Below are positions 827 to 9,321 of a stretch of 9,321 nt of DNA, piece by piece. Location: IMG/VR virus record IMGVR_UViG_2695420859_000017; one strand, given 5' to 3'. Origin of the DNA: a virus (Duplodnaviria; Heunggongvirae; Uroviricota; Caudoviricetes). Made by a program: the position numbers and the translations under genes. The notes below the pieces were generated by a model. It had not been told where the DNA came from and did not search any database. It saw only the letters and a list, made by a program, of their open reading frames with translations. Numbering within the stretch: position 1 is the first letter of the stretch; each line of letters begins with the position of its first letter.

Positions 827-942
827 GATGCGCATCCTCCGCCATCAGTCCCGGATGGCTTATCGCTGACACAACAGCACCTTAGCGAATCGCGGGGCGC
901 GACTCAGTAGCCTTGCCGTGTATTCATCACGGCGAGGTATTC

Positions 943-2715
943 ATGACCATCACCACAGACACCACTCTTTTACACGACCCGCGTCGTCAGGCGGCGCTGC
1001 TGTACTGGCAGGGGTTTTCCGTGCCGCAGATTGCCGCCATGTTGCAGATGAAACGCCCGACGGTGCAGAGCTGGAAACAGCGCGACGGCTGGGACAGCGT
1101 TGCCCCCATCAGCCGTGTCGAAATGAGCCTGGAAGCGCGGCTGACCCAGCTCATCATCAAACCGCAGAAAACCGGCGGTGACTTCAAGGAAATTGACCTG
1201 CTCGGACGCCAGATTGAACGACTGGCACGGGTAAACCGCTACAGTCAGACCGGCAACGAGGCAGACCTTAATCCGAACGTCGCTAACCGCAACAAAGGCG
1301 AGCGTCGCAAACCGAAAAAGAATTTTTTCAGTGACGAAGCCATCGAAAAGCTGGAGCAGATTTTCTTTGAGCAGTCTTTCGACTATCAGTTGCACTGGTA
1401 TCGCGCCGGGCTTGAGCACCGCATCCGCGATATACTGAAATCCCGCCAGATTGGCGCAACGTTTTATTTTTCCCGCGAGGCGCTGCTGCGCGCCCTGAAA
1501 ACCGGCCATAACCAGATTTTTCTGTCGGCCAGTAAAACGCAGGCGTATGTGTTCCGCGAATACATCATCGCCTTTGCCCGTCTGGTTGACGTTGACCTGA
1601 CCGGTGACCCGATTGTCCTGGGCAATAACGGCGCAAAACTAATTTTTCTCGGCACCAACTCCAACACCGCGCAGAGCCATAACGGCGACCTGTACGTCGA
1701 CGAGATTTTCTGGATCCCGAATTTTCAGGTACTGCGTAAGGTGGCATCAGGTATGGCCTCACAGAGTCACCTGCGCTCGACCTATTTCTCCACCCCGTCC
1801 ACGCTGGCGCACGACGCCTACCCGTTCTGGTCAGGTGAACTGTTCAACCGGGGACGCGCCAGCGCCGCCGAACGCGTGGAAATCGACGTCAGTCATAACG
1901 CCCTTGCCGGTGGTCTTCTCTGTGCGGACGGCCAGTGGCGGCAGATTGTCACCATTGAGGATGCCCTGAAAGGTGGCTGCACACTGTTCGACATTGAGCA
2001 GCTCAAACGTGAAAACAGCGCCGACGATTTTAAAAACCTGTTCATGTGTGAATTTGTTGACGACAAGGCGTCGGTGTTCCCGTTCGAGGAGCTGCAACGC
2101 TGCATGGTCGACACGCTGGAAGAATGGGAAGACTATGCGCCGTTTGCCGCCAATCCGTTCGGCTCACGTCCGGTATGGATTGGTTACGACCCGTCACACC
2201 GTGGCGACAGTGCCGGATGCGTGGTGCTGGCACCGCCGGTGGTGGCCGGTGGCAAATTCAGAATACTTGAGCGTCACCAGTGGAAAGGCATGGACTTTGC
2301 CACCCAGGCTGAATCCATCCGCAAACTCACCGAAAAATACAACGTCGAATACATCGGAATTGATGCCACCGGCCTCGGTGTCGGCGTGTTCCAGCTCGTT
2401 CGCTCGTTCTATCCCGCCGCGCGCGATATCCGCTACACGCCGGAAATGAAAACCGCAATGGTGCTCAAGGCAAAAGACGTTATTCGCCGTGGCTGTCTGG
2501 AATATGACGTCAGCGCCACCGACATCACCAGCTCGTTTATGGCTATCCGCAAGACCATGACCAGCAGCGGACGCAGCGCCACCTATGAGGCCAGCCGCAG
2601 CGAGGAAGCCAGCCACGCCGACCTCGCCTGGGCGACCATGCACGCCCTGTTAAATGAGCCACTCACCGCCGGTATCAGCACCCCGCTGACATCCACCATT
2701 CTGGAGTTTTACTGA
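943..2715 (+). CDS. P: Terminase large (ATPase) subunit GpP
   Basis: 590-codon ORF beginning MTITTDTTLLHDPRRQAALLYWQGFSVPQIAAMLQMKRPTVQSWKQRDGWD, recognised as P2-family GpP. ATG at 943 follows GAGG at 933..936; the ORF-track start at 913 is an upstream TTG and less likely. Stop TGA overlaps the next ATG (ATGA at 2715..2718). Confidence 0.9.
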   Translation: MTITTDTTLLHDPRRQAALLYWQGFSVPQIAAMLQMKRPTVQSWKQRDGWDSVAPISRVEMSLEARLTQLIIKPQKTGGDFKEIDLLGRQIERLARVNRYSQTGNEADLNPNVANRNKGERRKPKKNFFSDEAIEKLEQIFFEQSFDYQLHWYRAGLEHRIRDILKSRQIGATFYFSREALLRALKTGHNQIFLSASKTQAYVFREYIIAFARLVDVDLTGDPIVLGNNGAKLIFLGTNSNTAQSHNGDLYVDEIFWIPNFQVLRKVASGMASQSHLRSTYFSTPSTLAHDAYPFWSGELFNRGRASAAERVEIDVSHNALAGGLLCADGQWRQIVTIEDALKGGCTLFDIEQLKRENSADDFKNLFMCEFVDDKASVFPFEELQRCMVDTLEEWEDYAPFAANPFGSRPVWIGYDPSHRGDSAGCVVLAPPVVAGGKFRILERHQWKGMDFATQAESIRKLTEKYNVEYIGIDATGLGVGVFQLVRSFYPAARDIRYTPEMKTAMVLKAKDVIRRGCLEYDVSATDITSSFMAIRKTMTSSGRSATYEASRSEEASHADLAWATMHALLNEPLTAGISTPLTSTILEFY

Positions 2716-3872
2716 TGAGCAAGAAAAAAGGGAAAACACCGCAACCTGCGGCAAAAACAATGATCGCCAGCGCCCCGAAAATGGAGGCATTCACCTTTGG
2801 CGAGCCGGTACCGGTACTCGACCGCCGTGACATTCTTGATTACGTCGAATGCATCAGTAACGGCAGATGGTATGAGCCACCGGTCAGCTTTACCGGTCTG
2901 GCAAAAAGCCTGCGTGCCGCCGTGCATCACAGCTCCCCGATTTACGTCAAACGCAATATTCTGGCCTCGACATTTATCCCGCATCCGTGGCTTTCACAAC
3001 AGGATTTCAGCCGCTTTGTGCTGGATTTTCTGGTGTTCGGTAATGCGTTTCTGGAAAAGCGTTACAGCACCACCGGTAAGGTCATCAGACTGGAAACCTC
3101 ACCGGCAAAATATACCCGCCGTGGTGTGGAAGAGGATGTTTACTGGTGGGTGCCGTCCTTCAACGAGCCGACAGCCTTCACGCCCGGCTCCGTGTTTCAC
3201 CTGCTGGAGCCGGATATTAATCAGGAGCTGTACGGCCTGCCGGAATATCTCAGCGCCCTTAATTCTGCCTGGCTGAATGAGTCGGCCACGCTGTTTCGCC
3301 GCAAGTATTACGAAAACGGTGCTCATGCCGGATATATCATGTACGTCACTGATGCCGTGCAGGATCGCAACGATATCGAAATGCTTCGCGAAAACATGGT
3401 TAAGTCGAAAGGCCGCAACAACTTTAAAAATCTGTTTCTCTATGCCCCACAGGGGAAAGCCGACGGCATTAAAATTATCCCGCTCAGTGAAGTGGCAACG
3501 AAGGACGATTTTTTTAATATCAAAAAAGCCAGCGCCGCAGACCTGCTGGACGCGCACCGCATCCCTTTTCAGTTGATGGGCGGCAAGCCGGAGAACGTCG
3601 GGTCGCTGGGTGATATTGAGAAAGTGGCAAAGGTCTTTGTACGCCGTGGCTGTCTGGAATATGACGTCAGCGCCACCGACATCACCAGCTCGTTTATGGC
3701 TATCCGCAAGACCATGACCAGCAGCGGACGCAGCGCCACCTATGAGGCCAGCCGCAGCGAGGAAGCCAGCCACGCCGACCTCGCCTGGGCGACCATGCAC
3801 GCCCTGTTAAATGAGCCACTCACCGCCGGTATCAGCACCCCGCTGACATCCACCATTCTGGAGTTTTACTGA
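2715..3872 (+). pseudogene. Chimeric ORF: portal (GpQ) N-terminal ~309 codons fused in frame to a duplicated terminase C-terminal 76 codons
   Basis: Residues 1 to ~309 match the full portal copy at 4916..5935. From about nt 3642 the sequence shows no differences on visual comparison from terminase 2485..2715 (RRGCLEYDVSATDITSSFMAIRK...STILEFY), ending at a second copy of the P-stop/Q-start overlap. Confidence 0.55.
3642..3872 (+). repeat. Duplicate copy of the terminase 3' end (equals 2485..2715)
   Basis: Visual base-by-base comparison of 3642..3872 with 2485..2715 found no differences, including the terminal tactgATGagc junction. Confidence 0.8.
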
Positions 3873-4271
3873 TGAGCAAGAAAAAAGGGAAAACACCGCA
3901 ACCTGCGGCAAAAAAAATGACCGCCAGCACCCCGAAAATGGAGGCATTCACCTTTGGCGAGCCGGTGCCGGTACTCGACCGCCGTGACATTCTGGATTAC
4001 GTCGAATGCATCAGTAACGGCAGATGGTATGAGCCACCGGTCAGCTTTACCGGTCTGGCAAAAAGCCTGCGTGCTGCCGTGCATCACAGCTCACCGATTT
4101 ACGTCAAACGCAATATTCTGGCGTCGACATTTATCCCGCATCCGTGGCTTTCCCAGCAGGATTTCAGCCGCTTTGTGCTGGATTTTCTGGTGTTCGGTAA
4201 TGCGTTTCTGGAAAAGCGTTACAGCACCACCGGTAAAGTTATCAGGCTGGAAACCTCACCGGCAAAATATA
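3872..4271 (+). pseudogene. Portal (GpQ) 5' fragment, ~133 codons, diverged allele
   Basis: Begins MSKKKGKTPQPAAKKMTASTPKMEAF and tracks the portal to ...ETSPAKY. It differs from the other two copies by scattered single-base changes (KTMIASAP becomes KKMTASTP, plus apparently synonymous changes). After ~4271 the portal frame runs into unrelated sequence and stops at 4471. Confidence 0.55.
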
Positions 4272-4916
4272 TCGGTGTTCCCGTTCGAGGAGCTGCAACG
4301 CTGCATGGTCGACACGCTGGAAGAATGGGAAGACTATGCACCCTTTGCCGCCAATCCGTTCGGCTCCCGCCCGGTATGGATTGGTTACGACCCGTCACAC
4401 CGTGGCGACAGCGCCGGATGCGTGGTGCTGGCACCGCCGGTGGTGGCCGGTGGCAAATTCAGAATACTTGAGCGTCACCAGTGGAAAGGCATGGACTTTG
4501 CCACCCAGGCGGAATCCATCCGCAAACTCACCGAAAAATACAACGTCGAATACATCGGTATTGATGCCACCGGCCTCGGTGTCGGCGTGTTCCAGCTCGT
4601 GCGCTCGTTCTATCCTGCCGCGCGCGACATCCGCTACACGCCGGAAATGAAAACCGCAATGGTGCTCAAGGCAAAAGACGTTATCCGCCGTGGCTGTCTG
4701 GAATACGACGTCAGCGCCACCGACATCACCAGCTCGTTTATGGCTATCCGTAAGACCATGACCAGCAGCGGACGCAGCGCCACCTATGAGGCCAGCCGCA
4801 GCGAGGAAGCCAGCCACGCCGACCTCGCCTGGGCGACCATGCACGCCCTGTTAAATGAGCCACTCACCGCCGGTATCAGCACCCCGCTGACATCCACCAT
4901 TCTGGAGTTTTACTGA
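4272..4916 (+). pseudogene. Terminase (GpP) 3' fragment, ~214 codons, diverged allele, out of frame with the preceding portal fragment
   Basis: 4272..4916 corresponds to terminase 2071..2715 (VFPFEELQRCMVDTLEEWEDYAPFAANPF ... STILEFY) with several apparently synonymous single-base differences. It lies in a different frame from the portal fragment upstream; the ORF-track entry 3954..4916 is this frame reading backwards by chance. Confidence 0.55.
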
Positions 4917-5935
4917 TGAGCAAGAAAAAAGGGAAAACACCGCAACCTGCGGCAAAAACAATGATCGCCAGCGCCCCGAAAATGGAGGCATTCACCTTTG
5001 GCGAGCCGGTACCGGTACTCGACCGCCGTGACATTCTTGATTACGTCGAATGCATCAGTAACGGCAGATGGTATGAGCCACCGGTCAGCTTTACCGGTCT
5101 GGCAAAAAGCCTGCGTGCCGCCGTGCATCACAGCTCCCCGATTTACGTCAAACGCAATATTCTGGCCTCGACATTTATCCCGCATCCGTGGCTTTCACAA
5201 CAGGATTTCAGCCGCTTTGTGCTGGATTTTCTGGTGTTCGGTAATGCGTTTCTGGAAAAGCGTTACAGCACCACCGGTAAGGTCATCAGACTGGAAACCT
5301 CACCGGCAAAATATACCCGCCGTGGTGTGGAAGAGGATGTTTACTGGTGGGTGCCGTCCTTCAACGAGCCGACAGCCTTCGCGCCCGGCTCCGTGTTTCA
5401 CCTGCTGGAGCCGGATATTAATCAGGAACTGTACGGCCTGCCGGAATATCTCAGCGCCCTTAACTCTGCCTGGCTGAATGAGTCGGCCACGCTGTTCCGC
5501 CGCAAGTATTACGAAAATGGCGCACATGCCGGATACATCATGTACGTCACTGATGCCGTGCAGGACCGCAACGATATCGAAATGCTTCGCGAAAACATGG
5601 TCAAGTCGAAAGGCCGCAACAACTTTAAAAATCTGTTTCTCTATGCCCCACAGGGAAAAGCCGACGGCATTAAAATTATCCCGCTCAGTGAAGTGGCGAC
5701 GAAGGACGATTTTTTTAATATCAAAAAAGCCAGCGCGGAAGATCTAATGAGTGCCCATCGAGTCCCCCCGCAAATGATGGGGATGATGCCTAATAATGCG
5801 GGAGGATTTGGCGATGTAGTTAAAGCGGCTAAAGTTTTTGTCAGGAATGAGTTAGGGCATCTACAATCGCGAATGAAGGAATTGAACTCATGGATAGGTG
5901 AAACAGTTATAACATTTAACAATTACTCGTTATAA
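4916..5935 (+). CDS. Q: Portal protein GpQ, full length (339 aa), with a diverged AT-rich 3' end
   Basis: ORF starting MSKKKGKTPQPAAKTMIASAPKMEAFTFGEPVPVLDRRDILDYVECISNGRWYEPP, recognised as the P2-family portal. ATG overlaps the stop of the preceding terminase-derived segment. It is the only copy with a portal-type C-terminus and stop. Confidence 0.85.
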   Translation: MSKKKGKTPQPAAKTMIASAPKMEAFTFGEPVPVLDRRDILDYVECISNGRWYEPPVSFTGLAKSLRAAVHHSSPIYVKRNILASTFIPHPWLSQQDFSRFVLDFLVFGNAFLEKRYSTTGKVIRLETSPAKYTRRGVEEDVYWWVPSFNEPTAFAPGSVFHLLEPDINQELYGLPEYLSALNSAWLNESATLFRRKYYENGAHAGYIMYVTDAVQDRNDIEMLRENMVKSKGRNNFKNLFLYAPQGKADGIKIIPLSEVATKDDFFNIKKASAEDLMSAHRVPPQMMGMMPNNAGGFGDVVKAAKVFVRNELGHLQSRMKELNSWIGETVITFNNYSL

Positions 5936-5941
5936 ACCCTG

Positions 5942-5965
5942 CAGGCTTTGGCTCACCAAAGCCTG
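5942..5965. terminator. Hairpin between the convergent portal gene and the cargo operon (10-bp perfect stem CAGGCTTTGG / CCAAAGCCTG, 4-nt loop)
   Basis: Seen directly. Lies in the 35-bp gap between the Q stop (5935) and the minus-strand stop at 5971. No strong T-tract on either side, so intrinsic-terminator strength is uncertain. Confidence 0.45.
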
Positions 5966-5970
5966 TAAGA

Positions 5971-6588
5971 TCAAGCAGATAGGCAAAACGTTTCTGTTTG
6001 CCCCAAGTGTTCAAACACAGTAATCGATGTTACTTTTCCGGCACTTATTTTGTTAAGGAACTTCAATATTTGTTGAGGCTCCTCCATGACTGCTGTTTTC
6101 TTGATTATAAATCCCTCAAGATTTTTCAAGCTGTATCGCTGACTTGAGTTCTCAAGAGCAGCAATCATTGCCGAACTGCGCATATCTCTATGTCCACTAG
6201 CTCTACAAACGACAGCATAATTTAAATTAAGCTCTACAAAATTTTGCCTTGTCAACTCTGGAAGGTGTTTACATACAAAATGAAATAAAGTCGTAACACC
6301 TTCATGTATTTTCAACCTTATATCATCCTTTTGTGAACGTCCTTCTTTAAATTCAATGAAGTACAATTTATCTTCATATAAAAATAAAGCATCCGGTGAT
6401 TTTTCTTTAAACTCACGCTTATAAACAGGCGAGCAATTTAACACCGTATCATAGTTAAAGCCCTTCGAATCACAAATAATAAAATTCCGAGCCCCTGCAT
6501 CATTGTAGCTTAATCCGGTTACATCAACCATTGAATCAGGGTATACTTCACACAGTTTTCTAAAAACAAGTTCCTCATTAGAAATCAT
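5971..6588 (-). CDS. Hypothetical 205-aa protein, second gene of the cargo operon; family not recognised; possible PD-(D/E)xK-like nuclease motifs
   Basis: ATG at 6586..6588 is preceded by AGGAG (reverse complement of 6596..6600) at 7-nt spacing and overlaps the upstream gene by 11 nt (ATGATTTCTAA). Strongly AT-rich. Contains FIICD (res 36-40) and LFLYEDK / FIEFK (res 68-81), which could be PD-(D/E)xK motifs II and III; this is inference only. Confidence 0.7.
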   Translation of the reverse strand: MISNEELVFRKLCEVYPDSMVDVTGLSYNDAGARNFIICDSKGFNYDTVLNCSPVYKREFKEKSPDALFLYEDKLYFIEFKEGRSQKDDIRLKIHEGVTTLFHFVCKHLPELTRQNFVELNLNYAVVCRASGHRDMRSSAMIAALENSSQRYSLKNLEGFIIKKTAVMEEPQQILKFLNKISAGKVTSITVFEHLGQTETFCLSA

Positions 6589-7906
6589 CCAAATACTCCT
6601 GATTCAATTCTTTTAATGGTGATGCCAAAAGATTAATTGCATATGCAACATTATCAGTAATATCAACAAAAGATGTAAACTCTTCCCCAGGGAATCGCTC
6701 GCTTATATAGAACCGATTTTCAATCCCAATTTTATCGCTATAATGTTTAAGAGCATCAATAATATACGGGCTATGTGTTGTAATTATTATATCAACCCCC
6801 ATAGACACTAACTCACAAATAATCTCAGCATAGAAAACCTGCCATTTTGGATGTAAGTTCACCTCTGGCTCATCAATAATCAGTAACGAGTTATCTACTG
6901 CTGCCCCGCACTTAACAAGCATATCAAGAATACCTAAAGACTTTATTCCTGACGCAATATTACCCGATGTGACTTTATAGCCTTGCTTCTCTAGAAAAAA
7001 ATCATTCTTTTCAATATCATAAACCACTTCACCACAGAAAGTAGCATTGATTTTGTTAGATATACGCAGTGACTCTTTTAAAAATGAGCCATCATCAAAA
7101 ATATCCGAATGCACAAATAAATTATAAACTGAATCGCTTAATTTTATTGATAGATCTTTCACATGCAATGGAACAGTTAGACGTCCTGATTCACCATTAC
7201 TATCAAATAAAGTTTTAGCAAAACGAACCAAATTATGAAATTGCATAATACTTGGAGAGTCAACATAGGTTGCGTCGACATATCCTAAGCCATCAGTATA
7301 ATCAAATTGTGATATACCATCTTTAGTCCATTTAATATCAATTAACTGACTAACACCATCAACAACTTCCAGAGATGCTTTAACTGGATTTTGATTACCC
7401 TTCTGAATAATTTCGCCTCTAAATTCAGAGTAAAAGGCCTTACGCAGAGCACGGTTGATAGCAGATAGCTCATCATCTGGCTCAAGCATTATATCTCTGA
7501 TTTTTCTTATATCAGAGAGTACAGAATCAGCCATCAATTCTGGAAGAAGCCCTTCCTCAATCAAATTATATAGATAACTCTCTCTCTCAGCCAAAGTTTT
7601 AGAGATATCTATTTTTAGAGAGGCATAAAACTTTCTTGGATTGAATAACTCTCTAATTTCCGGCGTAGCAGCAATATTAATCCTCCTACGCAGATTAAAA
7701 TATATTTTCTCTACGATAGATGTAATTCTATCCTCTTTGTCTTCTTCTAAATCCTCTTGATAACGAGATATCGCCTTTACCATTGAAAACAATATTTTCC
7801 CTACGGTACTCTTCCCCGTATCATTTTCACCAGTTATGACAGTTAAACCACCAACTGAAACATCAGCTTCTGCAATAGTTCCAAAATTATTAATTTTTAT
7901 ACGCAT
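6578..7906 (-). CDS. OLD/ABC-family (AAA_15/AAA_21-like) ATPase, 442 aa, with no Toprim or other nuclease domain
   Basis: N-terminal Walker A GENDTGKST (nt 7805..7831), C-terminal Walker B LLIIDEPE (nt 6863..6886) and H-loop TTHSP (nt 6767..6781), with ~300 residues between the Walker motifs. This layout is typical of OLD/GajA/AriA/PtuA-type ATPases. Spot counts of 60-nt lines give roughly 27-30% GC against about 60% in the structural genes. Confidence 0.8.
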   Translation of the reverse strand: MRIKINNFGTIAEADVSVGGLTVITGENDTGKSTVGKILFSMVKAISRYQEDLEEDKEDRITSIVEKIYFNLRRRINIAATPEIRELFNPRKFYASLKIDISKTLAERESYLYNLIEEGLLPELMADSVLSDIRKIRDIMLEPDDELSAINRALRKAFYSEFRGEIIQKGNQNPVKASLEVVDGVSQLIDIKWTKDGISQFDYTDGLGYVDATYVDSPSIMQFHNLVRFAKTLFDSNGESGRLTVPLHVKDLSIKLSDSVYNLFVHSDIFDDGSFLKESLRISNKINATFCGEVVYDIEKNDFFLEKQGYKVTSGNIASGIKSLGILDMLVKCGAAVDNSLLIIDEPEVNLHPKWQVFYAEIICELVSMGVDIIITTHSPYIIDALKHYSDKIGIENRFYISERFPGEEFTSFVDITDNVAYAINLLASPLKELNQEYLDDF

Positions 7907-7946
7907 AAACTATCTCACTGTACGCCAGATATCCAACCTTATGAAT

Positions 7947-7975
7947 ACTTTAGCATATTTCCAAAAAGATGACAC
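7947..7975 (-). promoter_or_regulatory. Candidate sigma70 promoter for the cargo operon (GTGTCA-N17-TAAAGT with a TG extended -10)
   Basis: Read on the minus strand between cos and the ATPase start codon. A 4/6 match at -35 and TGnTAAAGT at -10 would leave a ~40-nt 5' UTR. Pattern match by eye only. Confidence 0.25.
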
Positions 7976-7999
7976 TGGTGGTTGCAGGCCTCGCGCGCA

Positions 8000-8018
8000 G
8001 TGCTTTCCCCGCCTCGCC
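8000..8018 (-). other. cos: cos site: 19-nt cohesive-end sequence identical to P2 (GGCGAGGCGGGGAAAGCAC on the minus strand)
   Basis: Reverse complement of 8000..8018 is GGCGAGGCGGGGAAAGCAC, followed by CTGCGCGC, matching my recollection of the P2 left end. It sits in a GC-rich block, in the expected neighbourhood of the portal gene. Confidence 0.75.
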
Positions 8019-8112
8019 CGCCCGCTTCACGGGGCGGTTTTAATGCAGTTGCATAGATACTATGGATCCGCACCAGTCCTGACCGCACGCAGCCTGAACG
8101 GACATCCCCAGC

Positions 8113-8141
8113 GCATGCAAAAACATTCACTGGTTGCATGC
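8113..8141. other. Inverted repeat GCATGCAA-N13-TTGCATGC followed by CTTTTT
   Basis: Seen directly, ~100 bp from cos. Could be a protein-binding site or a weak terminator. Confidence 0.2.
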
Positions 8142-8302
8142 ATAGCTTTTTAAGTACGCCATACCGCAACTGTACATTTTTAAGCAATTGGCAACTTTAA
8201 AAAATTTACATTGCTTTCAAGACCTTATCATCCGTAGTCTCTGTTTTTTACTTTGAGCTACATCAATAAAATCTCAAACATGTTTAATGCAAAGCCCTTG
8301 TT

Positions 8303-8356
8303 ACACAACATAGAATGTATGTCTAGAAACAACGACATACTATATGTTGTGTTTTT
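8303..8356 (+). other. Long imperfect hairpin (arms ACACAACATAGAATGTATGTC / GACATACTATATGTTGTGT, 10-nt loop) followed by a T-run; terminator-like or sRNA 3' end
   Basis: Seen directly: 10-bp and 7-bp perfect stem segments separated by a small internal loop, then TTTTT at 8352..8356. An A-tract is lacking on the other side, so orientation is plus. Confidence 0.4.
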
Positions 8357-8418
8357 CCGGCTCTCTGTTCGGTGATATGCCAAATCACTTTGCGTTTAAA
8401 CAGAGCATTATTTCAGGG

Positions 8419-8433
8419 CAAGACTTCGCTCAA
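8419..8433 (+). repeat. 15-bp direct repeat CAAGACTTCGCTCAA, copy 1
   Basis: Exact 15-mer found again at 8683..8697; the two copies bracket the small ORF and its terminator. Confidence 0.5.
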
Positions 8434-8496
8434 AAGTCATTCCACCTAAGAAGCGCATATACCGGTGGAAGTTGCCCTCTACTTACAGGAGGCAAT

Positions 8497-8610
8497 ATGA
8501 AGAAATGCTATTACTGCATTCTCGTTCTGGCCCTCTTTGGCTATCCAAACGGTAGTCCGAGTGGTTTGTCAGTAAACGTCAGTAATATCAATGTCAGCAT
8601 TATGCTTTAA
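8497..8610 (+). CDS. Small hydrophobic peptide, 37 aa (MKKCYYCILVLALFGYPNGSPSGLSVNVSNINVSIML); function unknown
   Basis: ATG at 8497 is preceded by a consensus AGGAGG at 8487..8492 (4-nt spacing). Stop at 8608..8610 is followed 13 nt later by a strong intrinsic terminator. The N-terminus is KK followed by a ~13-residue hydrophobic stretch. Short length keeps confidence low. Confidence 0.35.
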   Translation: MKKCYYCILVLALFGYPNGSPSGLSVNVSNINVSIML

Positions 8611-8622
8611 TATGCTTCAAAC

Positions 8623-8652
8623 AAAAAAACCACCTGCCAGGGTGGTTTTTTT
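8623..8652. terminator. Rho-independent terminator, bidirectional form (AAAAAAACCACC-TGCCAG-GGTGGTTTTTTT)
   Basis: Seen directly: perfect GC-containing stem with a 6-nt loop, A-tract upstream and T7 downstream. Confidence 0.8.
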
Positions 8653-8682
8653 GCGCCCATCATCAATACGATGAAAGACTGA

Positions 8683-8697
8683 CAAGACTTCGCTCAA
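8683..8697 (+). repeat. 15-bp direct repeat CAAGACTTCGCTCAA, copy 2
   Basis: Identical to 8419..8433; AAGACT-like motifs also occur at 8675..8680 and 8696..8700. Confidence 0.5.
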
Positions 8698-8912
8698 GAC
8701 GAATTATGCGTCGACATAAGGTTACCCGCAATGATTTTATTAGACTAAATGGATGGCCTTTTATGACCCGGATCAAACGGCTGTCCTTACCGACATGCTA
8801 GTCACTCAATAGCATTTAGCCTTCTAATTCAGCATGCTATTGACCTTCTGCTGCCCCATAACTGCTCCGCATAAGCCATTCAATGCCATATCAAATCACG
8901 TTGTGTTTTTAC

Positions 8913-9321
8913 TCAAATGGGTAACGAGAACCCCGGCCACTCATCAGCAACCGGATACGTGAATTTTTTCCCGTCATAATTTACGGTCGCGCCACGCGCC
9001 AGCGCCTCAAGCTCCCATCGTTGCGGCCTGATACCGTTCTGAGCGAGGTCAACGCGGATACGGGTAATTTGCAATCGTTCAGACCTGGTCAGTCTGGCAG
9101 ATGGTGCAATTTCATGCGGTTTTAACGGGATTCCGTTTCTTTGCTGACGATTTGGTGTTCTCAGTCCGTGTTTTAATGCGCCCCTGAGCACCATCACTAC
9201 CTCCGGGTCACTCCATTCGATAACACCGTCATCTACCAGATTAAGCACTGCTGCGGCGTGCTCAGAAGGTGTGGGAGCCGGTAACGAAGTATCACCACCG
9301 GTGAGCTTTCCACAGTTATTG
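8913..9321 (-). CDS. Phage protein, 3' portion only (gene starts beyond the window end); probably the last gene of the early/replication operon
   Basis: The minus-strand frame is open from the window edge (…TGGDTSLPAPTPSEHAAAVLNLVDDGVIEWSDPEV…) to TGA at 8913..8915. The ORF-track start at 9248 is an internal GTG. GC content is backbone-like. Product assignment is positional inference only. Confidence 0.55.
   Translation of the reverse strand, partial: NNCGKLTGGDTSLPAPTPSEHAAAVLNLVDDGVIEWSDPEVVMVLRGALKHGLRTPNRQQRNGIPLKPHEIAPSARLTRSERLQITRIRVDLAQNGIRPQRWELEALARGATVNYDGKKFTYPVADEWPGFSLPI

Follow-up and report, generated by a model that had tools for sequence, protein, structure and literature searches.

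The 9,321-base-pair (bp) stretch of DNA analyzed here (the window) is the whole of contig CYER01000057.1 from draft assembly GCA_001283965.1, entered in IMG/VR as IMGVR_UViG_2695420859_000017, and is part of a P2-like prophage. Its complete portal gene, Q, is a mosaic of a long 5' part of the resident Escherichia coli P2 type and a short, diverged 3' end, the Q tail. The tail is followed, in the space between Q and the packaging site cos, by a cargo of two defense-like genes, the cassette. Our data suggest that positions 5737-7992, comprising the tail and everything up to the edge of cos, were very probably imported as a single block into an E. coli P2-type phage from a diverged P2-like phage richer in adenine and thymine (AT).

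The mosaic junction inside Q

The features of Q and of the adjoining block are as follows (aa, amino acids; nt, nucleotides).

4916-5935, plus strand: complete portal gene Q (339 aa)
4916-5736, plus strand: 5' 821 nt of Q, resident E. coli P2 type (97.4-97.6% identity with P2 and with canonical E. coli alleles)
5699-5736, plus strand: probable crossover interval, a conserved nucleotide island of Q (codons ~263-274, KDDFFNIKKAS)
5737-5935, plus strand: putatively foreign, AT-shifted 3' end of Q (last 65 codons and stop)
5940-5967, no strand assigned: hairpin with a perfect 12-bp stem between the convergent Q and 205-aa genes, part of the putatively imported block
5971-6588, minus strand: cargo gene 2, for a 205-aa protein of unknown family; 11-nt overlap with the ATPase gene
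6578-7906, minus strand: cargo gene 1, 442-aa ABC-type ATPase (AAA_15/AAA_21), defense-like
7907-7992, no strand assigned: upstream region of the cargo operon, last part of the putatively imported block, at the edge of the cos core
7993-8047, no strand assigned: cos core, right-hand boundary of the block, with the 19-nt cohesive end at 8000-8018

Compared with a canonical E. coli P2-type allele (locus L172), Q has 20 mismatches in the 821 nt before position 5737 (2.4%) and 85 in the 196 nt after it (43%; Fisher p = 3e-49), which corresponds to 97.6% identity over 821 nt and 57% from 5737 onward. The maximum-chi-square breakpoint falls after Q nt 821, that is, at window position 5736. Sporadic mismatch to canonical alleles is last seen at 5698 and dense mismatch first at 5737, which bounds the crossover to 5699-5736. 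In P2 and in more than 70 further P2-like phage records, the match to Q is confined to nt 1-821/830. A Q-derived copy further upstream in the window (2715-3644) shows the same step, with 12 mismatches in the first 821 nt and dense mismatches from 5737. This last comparison was the starting point of a sequence-only reading of the window, which had described the portal copies as close for about 800 bp and sharply diverged over the last ~200 bp. Our mapping places that step at 5736/5737, a few bases from the start at 5730 given there, and the peptides quoted for the two versions can both be read: the full copy has AAKVFVRNELGHLQSRMKELN, the chimeric one GDIEKVAKVFV. The copy that served as comparator belongs to a chimeric tandem layout present in no complete genome (see below); the comparison is valid because the segment is a canonical P2-type allele (97.4% identity to P2).

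The same reading had called the tail AT-richer, and the composition of the gene bears this out. The guanine-plus-cytosine (GC) content drops from 52.3% (nt 1-821) to 42.3% (nt 822-1017), and GC at third codon positions (GC3) from 62% in the 5' part to 40% in the tail (p = 0.001); the homologous canonical stretch has a GC3 of 72%. Further on, GC is 31-38% over 6200-7900, compared to 50-60% in the rest of the window.

Nucleotide conservation among 68 diverse P2-like Q genes has peaks at codons 263-269 (5702-5734, 0.84-0.86) and at codons 298-308 (5807-5854). Phage mosaicism reportedly arises through relaxed homologous recombination at short conserved stretches, as De Paepe and colleagues are said to have described in 2014. 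The present case is similar in that a sharp 97%/57% identity junction lies on a local island of nucleotide conservation, and in that the outcome is a chimeric, yet in-frame, essential gene. It differs in that the packaging site, and not another tract of homologous gene sequence, forms one of the two boundaries, and in that the exchange is read from the sequence. To our knowledge, P2 encodes no recombinase of its own, and host RecA or the enzyme of another phage would therefore have to act in the exchange. Taken singly, the junction is an ordinary phage mosaic junction, a recombination scar.

Origin of the Q tail

By its sequence, the tail is evidently a genuine portal C-terminus of another lineage. 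The Phage_portal domain (PF04860) is recognized in Q with 59.9 bits (curated cut-off 39.1) over residues 89-325, which includes most of the diverged tail. When the last 70 aa are compared with one genome per species, the closest sequences are in prophage portals of Dryocola and Buttiauxella (76-81% aa identity), followed by Photorhabdus, Rahnella and Rouxiella (~70%). Escherichia P2-type portals are 98-100% identical to Q in residues 1-274 and only 59% in the tail. The 5' part has the opposite affinity, with 79-85% aa identity to portals of the Dryocola/Buttiauxella type.

The family consensus C-terminus of P2-like portals is closer to the tail in the window than to the tail of P2. Across alignment A2 and loci L004-L331, Q codons 275-339 of P2-like portals belong to one or the other of two old classes. 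One is the P2 type (RIPFQLMGGKPENVGSLGDIEKVAKVF...), the other a consensus type (RVPPQMMG..PNN.GGFGDV.KAAQVF...); of the two, the tail canonical in E. coli is the less typical for the P2-like family as a whole. A predicted structure of the portal (AlphaFold, 38-sequence alignment) has a mean predicted local distance difference test score of 37, with only the C-terminal helix at ~301-327 moderately confident, and a sequence search for a solved structural homologue of the portal found none.

Linkage of tail and cargo

The diverged tail is present in 8 of 5426 complete E. coli genomes, and the cargo in the same 8. Seven complete chromosomes and many independent assemblies have the tail, cargo and cos in the same arrangement at 99-100% identity, together with a single normal P (the terminase gene upstream of Q) and a single normal Q. 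IMG/VR holds 6 contigs with the same architecture, one metagenome contig has the same tail with the rest of the block, and an index of assemblies lists the identical ATPase protein for 780 blocks. Ten further assemblies, among the matches listed, show the order A ... cos ... ATPase, 205-aa gene, 339-aa portal, P. These ten have varied phage backgrounds, with different types of gene A, integrase and repressor, and their cargo on the gene A side of cos also varies. The same tail with different or no cargo was found neither in the complete E. coli genomes nor in IMG/VR, the metagenome contigs or the further assemblies. The counter-example that the sequence-only reading had envisaged, the same C-terminus with unrelated or no cargo and no GC shift, thus did not turn up.

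The complete chromosomes also bear on a more trivial explanation, a mis-join in the draft contig that would have produced the diverged tail. The 9.3-kb window is a whole draft contig with chimeric copies of P and Q, and its Q::P junctions occur in no complete genome, which speaks for such an error. For the Q tail, however, a mis-join is refuted by the seven complete chromosomes and the independent assemblies that share the arrangement from Q through the cassette to cos.

The 8 complete sequences include one labeled as a plasmid (L333, NZ_CP159691.1, “plasmid unnamed3”, 3847 bp, linear), which is really a fragment of a P2-like prophage with Q tail, cassette, cos and genes of the A side; it also belongs to a second, ~3%-diverged lineage of the block. 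Another carrier (L343, NRYI01000095.1, ~3243-5864) has a retron-like reverse transcriptase (weak RVT_1 match) and small open reading frames (ORFs) on the A side of cos, and this prophage therefore has separate cargo sets on both sides of cos.

Polymorphism along the region was measured in 16 carriers of the main lineage plus the window (n=17), as percentage of polymorphic sites.

3' part of P: 5.3%
Q, 4916-5698: 7.3%
5699-5736: 0% (0/38)
Q tail: 0.5%
cassette: 0.44%
A-side block: 0.35%
gene A: 8.8%

Diversity among carriers thus steps down between 5698 and 5737, exactly on the mosaic boundary, and the tails of main-lineage carriers differ from one another by 0-1 mismatches. The step is explained by later exchanges with resident phages that fall upstream in Q; exchange has affected the flanks repeatedly, to the very limit of homology. 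A breakpoint common to the carriers, for which the sequence-only reading had proposed to look, is therefore present, as the drop from 7.3% to 0.5% of sites marks it.

These figures leave little of the idea that the portal C-terminus diverged in place, under relaxed or positive selection with AT-biased mutation and without recombination. The C-terminal part of Q is indeed somewhat less conserved across the family. However, 43% nucleotide divergence abuts 2.4% in a step that is one base sharp, the tail is nearer to the portals of other genera than to those of its own lineage, and it is near-invariant although the Q 5' parts of its carriers vary at 7% of sites. In-place divergence is effectively refuted.

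The second block lineage (L088 and CP159691) has the same breakpoint and differs by 3.0% in the tail and by 3.3% in the cassette. The nearly equal divergence, together with the common breakpoint, indicates that tail and cassette share their history. Two separate events, in which a type-II tail would have come first by allelic exchange and the cassette would have been inserted between Q and cos later, or the reverse, are for these reasons unlikely. They would be in line with four loci (L097, L100, L101 and L210) that combine a related tail (75% aa identity) and the same breakpoint with a different, unrelated cassette, from which it follows that, over long evolutionary times, a class of tail is not firmly tied to one cassette, and with the negative outcome of the donor search. 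Apart from the equal divergence in the second lineage, the absence of intermediates speaks against two events: tail-only and cassette-only forms number 0 in the 5426 complete genomes and the other collections searched. Moreover, 5737-7992 contains no sequence of resident type, and five other non-canonical tails are each paired with a cassette of their own. With a tail that shares just 57% identity with resident alleles, later crossovers also have no homology to use between tail and cargo, which makes the two one linkage block. The proposal of the sequence-only reading, that the cargo was acquired through a breakpoint inside Q and brought a foreign Q 3' end with it, accordingly gains support from the linkage, the affinity of the tail, the GC shift and the shared breakpoint.

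The cos boundary

On the right, the block ends at cos. Positions 7993-8047 (55 nt) are 100% identical to the cos of P2, and the P2 cohesive-end 19-mer GTGCTTTCCCCGCCTCGCC occurs once in the window, at 8000-8018. The window again resembles P2, and seven loci with other cargo, from 7993-7995 onward, 5-7 nt before the cohesive end, and in 7907-7992 there is no similarity to P2 or to the other cargo types before 7993. All comparisons agree on a right boundary at 7992/7993, and the block 5737-7992 therefore ends 7 nt before the 19-nt cohesive end. In P2, the interval between Q and cos is ~170 bp long and holds the tQ terminator, with old and tin across cos. The cargo of the window sits between Q and cos, that is, on the Q side.

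Beyond cos, the window has a second variable block (8048-8912), which is absent from P2. Its stretch 8060-8900 occurs in 149 complete genomes, only ~7 of them with the Q-side cassette of the window, and three carriers of the cassette (L088, L333 and L343) have A-side content that differs from that of the window. The P2-like prophage of E. coli W (L332, NC_017664.1 2324946-2330786) has a different Q-side cassette, which encodes a 477-aa AAA ATPase and a 190-aa protein, whereas its A-side stretch is that of the window, with 99.8% identity. This combination directly shows independent assortment across cos.

Other cargo types at the same site

The exchange of the Q tail together with cargo is not peculiar to the window. 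Among E. coli-type loci, defined as those at least 94% identical in Q residues 1-274, loci with the canonical Q tail have a spacer of 157-169 bp between the Q stop codon and cos (59 of 60), and six non-canonical tails are followed by 942-2308 bp before cos (9 of 9 contigs). The long Q-to-cos DNA has 33-37% GC and contains one or two genes on the minus strand, different for each type. Altogether, seven cargo types fill the same slot, several of them pairs of an ATPase and a partner that are related only at the level of the ATPase domain (27-29% identity). The canonical layout of tail, spacer and cos is present in 1537 of the 1630 complete E. coli genomes with any match.

Besides the cargo of the window, five further Q-side types each replace part of the Q 3' end, with staggered breakpoints. 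In canonical numbering, the left breakpoints are at Q nt 816, 822 (the window), 936, 941, 982 and 1006, and in one case in the spacer, at 1170 (locus L206). The breakpoints at 816 and 822 lie on the first conservation peak of Q, the one at 936 at the 3' end of the second peak, and the one at 941 just past it; three of the four most 5' breakpoints, that of the window included, thus lie on a conserved nucleotide island of Q. The right edge is at canonical nt 1197-1200 in all seven types, 5-8 nt before cos, the 19-mer of which starts at 1205. Composition follows the same division: relative to the rest of Q, GC3 of the tail is +0.07 in loci with a short spacer and -0.10 in loci with a long spacer (Mann-Whitney p = 1e-17; 177 non-redundant loci with cos), a p-value that is inflated, as the loci are mutually related and were chosen by similarity to the Q of the window.

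For P2-like portals generally, the chances seem evenly balanced that the last ~20-70 codons belong, by their behavior, to a mobile defense cassette and not to the core of the phage. In such a pathway, Q-side cassettes would invariably border on the cos core at one point, 5-8 nt ahead of the cohesive end, and exchange would consist of one homology-guided crossover in a conserved Q island, with cos as the other boundary. Every cassette would take a tail of its own, often AT-shifted, across lineages and genera, and the sides of cos would assort independently. We also considered a recent exchange of the canonical, “empty” tail-to-cos module between lineages with 80% identical Q; it is unsupported, as the identity profile rises only mildly.

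A model for the exchange

Together, our data suggest a model in which an E. coli P2-type phage recombined with a diverged P2-like phage that had a cassette between Q and cos. On the left, the crossover would have taken place in the nucleotide-conserved stretch of Q at codons ~263-274, the island proximal to the cassette, and the block would have brought the last 65 Q codons, the hairpin, the 205-aa gene, the ABC-ATPase gene and the upstream region. The right edge would be set by the 55-bp cos core, either through a second crossover within it or through joining at cos, alternatives that are indistinguishable here. The linear genome has its end at cos, and one crossover in Q, with the two genomes in linear or concatemeric form, would therefore suffice to swap the terminal segment. 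Later recombination upstream in Q would then have carried the block onto many E. coli P2-like backgrounds.

The opposite polarity, in which a foreign, AT-richer phage with the cassette would be ancestral and E. coli-type DNA would have replaced everything except 5737-7992, is very unlikely. A mosaic junction alone gives no direction, and the flanks have clearly been exchanged, as carriers have many different E. coli-type flanks. However, this scenario requires that ~30 kb were replaced and 2.3 kb kept, and E. coli-type sequence makes up both flanks as well as the cos core (94-100% identity). In effect, it yields the same recombination products with the same junction.

Several points weigh against the import of a single block and against its generalization. 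A search with the 70-aa tail in genome contigs, IMG/VR and metagenome contigs found no donor, non-carriers being at most 81% identical in aa and at most 79% in nt. Since no donor was found, the direction and the single step are arrived at by parsimony. The evidence for linkage comes from the descendants of one or two imports, and two closely spaced events are still compatible with it. The block is found in 0 of 50,697 records of isolated phages, and for this reason the chimeric portal can be called no more than presumably viable. At locus L206, with its breakpoint in the spacer, Q is intact and canonical, which makes replacement of the tail usual, not obligatory. Finally, the samples behind the general pattern were picked by similarity to the Q of the window and are not independent.

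Phage records, queried at the nucleotide level with the tail and with the complete block, likewise yielded no donor; over all these searches, the matches were carriers, either identical or of the 3%-diverged lineage, or the relatives just mentioned. A protein-database search with the 70-aa tail returned short fragments only. Between the carriers and the nearest non-carriers, the genome, IMG/VR, metagenome and phage collections contain only the 3%-diverged second block lineage. The presumably foreign status of the tail is thus read from the mosaic pattern and not from an identified parent. Its near-invariance notwithstanding the varied backgrounds would fit a single-block import, and the imported tail would be expected to function within the chimeric portal.

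Relation to the known hotspot

The interval between gpA and gpQ in P2-like phages is a known cos-proximal hotspot of defense genes (Rousset et al., 2022, PMC9122126; a 2026 survey, PMC13586616). The cargo of the window has the location of this hotspot, with the end of Q at 5935, cos at 8000-8018 and gene A from 8913 onward on the minus strand. Like other hotspot cargo, it lies between A and Q beside cos and is AT-rich, short, defense-like and variable among otherwise near-identical phages. The locus is therefore a new example at a known hotspot and not a new kind of element. There are differences as well. In their accessible parts, the surveys take gpQ as a fixed flank, with no division by side of cos and no breakpoints inside Q. 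The cargo of the window, in contrast, is on the Q side of cos, and the boundary of the hotspot lies ~200 nt inside Q. We found no published description of breakpoints inside Q in the literature searched, the coverage of which does not extend to older subscription papers on recombination between P2 relatives.

Both surveys (PMC9122126, PMC13586616), in their accessible parts, call the mechanism behind the rapid turnover of cargo unresolved. In the part accessible, Rousset et al. (2022, PMC9122126) speculated that the cos ends and a second, homologous crossover exchange the locus, and the junctions mapped here fit that speculation as it appears there.

The old/tin region of P2 occupies the same hotspot, likewise with accessory exclusion genes and an ATPase (P2 Old is annotated as “AAA family ATPase”), and the ATPase of the window gives weak PADLOC matches to Old. 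Yet old and tin are on the A side of cos and the cassette of the window is on the Q side, there is no nucleotide similarity between them, and the partner in the window is an unrelated 205-aa protein.

The gpA-gpQ hotspot is a major reservoir of anti-phage systems, and the locus described here is a base-resolved footprint of what appears to be one exchange, with an island of the portal gene at one end and the cos core at the other; the polymorphism among carriers shows that the block has since spread as a unit. Because the same anatomy recurs with six other cassettes, surveys in which gpQ serves as a fixed flank probably overlook some of the exchanged DNA. The C-terminal ~65 residues of the portal appear to tolerate replacement by a sequence of 59% identity, which bears on portal engineering and on the delimitation of core genes in prophage comparisons. 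If the general pattern holds, the unexplained turnover at the hotspot would acquire a specific, testable mechanism.

Cassette genes and hairpin

The 442-aa ATPase matches the Pfam families AAA_15 (7e-19) and AAA_21 (1.7e-18). Its top PADLOC matches are HEC-02A (1.8e-33) and PD-T4-4_A (1.7e-30), with the best stretch at about residues 273-396, and NCBIfam gives sub-threshold matches only, for example to PtuA. The 205-aa partner has no match in Pfam, PADLOC or NCBIfam; its gene always adjoins the ATPase gene. The cassette resembles the two-gene systems PD-T4-4 and HEC-02, which provide the best PADLOC matches of the ATPase, in that a small partner gene is next in an overlapping operon. It differs from them in that the 205-aa partner lacks a PADLOC match and that the ATPase match is best in the C-terminal third. 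Membership in either system calls for matches of both components, and only the A component matches. From these similarities, the cassette may confer defense.

A distant P2-like phage (L090, IMGVR_UViG_2511231160_000001, ~8001-11031), the portal of which has 63-65% aa identity to that of the window, encodes homologues of the ATPase (57%) and of the 205-aa protein (53%) directly downstream of its Q. The tie of this cassette family to the Q side of cos is therefore old.

The hairpin at 5940-5967 occupies the place of the tQ terminator region of P2. It folds with -20.6 kcal/mol (z = -3.5) on the plus strand and -21.4 kcal/mol (z = -2.6) on the minus strand; on the plus strand it has no clear U-tract, and it was not called by a terminator scan. 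The accompanying promoter scan gave promoter-like sites no more frequently than in shuffled sequence, and no promoter in 7907-7992.

The chimeric copies upstream of Q

Three genes precede the complete portal gene.

913-2715, plus strand: terminase gene P
2715-3872, plus strand: chimeric Q::P copy 1
3872-4916, plus strand: chimeric Q::P copy 2

The P stop and the start of Q overlap at 4916, so that Q lies directly downstream of P and near cos, a layout found also in P2 and all carriers. By its Phage_portal domain and by this synteny, Q is a P2-like (Peduoviridae) portal gene. In copy 1, the 5' 930 nt of Q are joined in frame to the 3' 247 nt of P; in copy 2, the 5' ~400 nt of Q are joined out of frame to the 3' 645 nt of P. 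The junctions, at 3644/3645 and 4271/4272, have 1-3 nt of microhomology, and the three P/Q copies differ from one another by 1-3%. Neither junction is collinear in any of the 5426 complete E. coli genomes (0/5426), and all other carriers have a single P and Q. Three overlapping allelic contigs, set one directly after another, would give just this layout (the first from P nt 1 to Q nt 930, the second from P nt 1557 to Q nt ~400, and the third from P nt 1159 onward). Most likely, the chimeric copies are an artefact of assembly or scaffolding in a strain with several P2-like prophages; alternatively, they may stem from real illegitimate recombination. They are in any case not part of the mosaic event, and an artefact here leaves the finding for the Q tail intact because that finding rests on complete genomes.

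The gene A side of cos

Two features lie beyond the cos core.

8048-8912, no strand assigned: second variable block, on the gene A side of cos, the site of old and tin in P2
8913 onward, minus strand: 3' end of replication gene A

The cos core itself contains, at 8018-8037, a GC-rich 6-bp stem followed by TTTTAA, which starts with the last base of the cohesive-end 19-mer. It is the only terminator-like site called in 5850-8950 and, from its position inside the 55-bp core, may be a structural element of cos rather than a terminator.

Within the A-side block, a 37-aa ORF (8497-8610, plus strand; MKKCYYCILVLALFGYPNGSPSGLSVNVSNINVSIML) follows a strong AGGAGG ribosome-binding site, and downstream of it (~8630-8652) there is a stem CCACC/GGTGG flanked by A7 and T7. 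The ORF has no family match, and no annotated feature is present at its place in the 149 complete genomes with the A-side block. Judging from its sequence, the product could be a small membrane or toxic peptide.

On the far side of this block, the match to P2 does not start again until 8926, ~4 codons into gene A from its 3' end, and diversity among carriers rises at the gene A stop codon. The region 8913-8925 is thus a milder mirror of the boundary inside Q.

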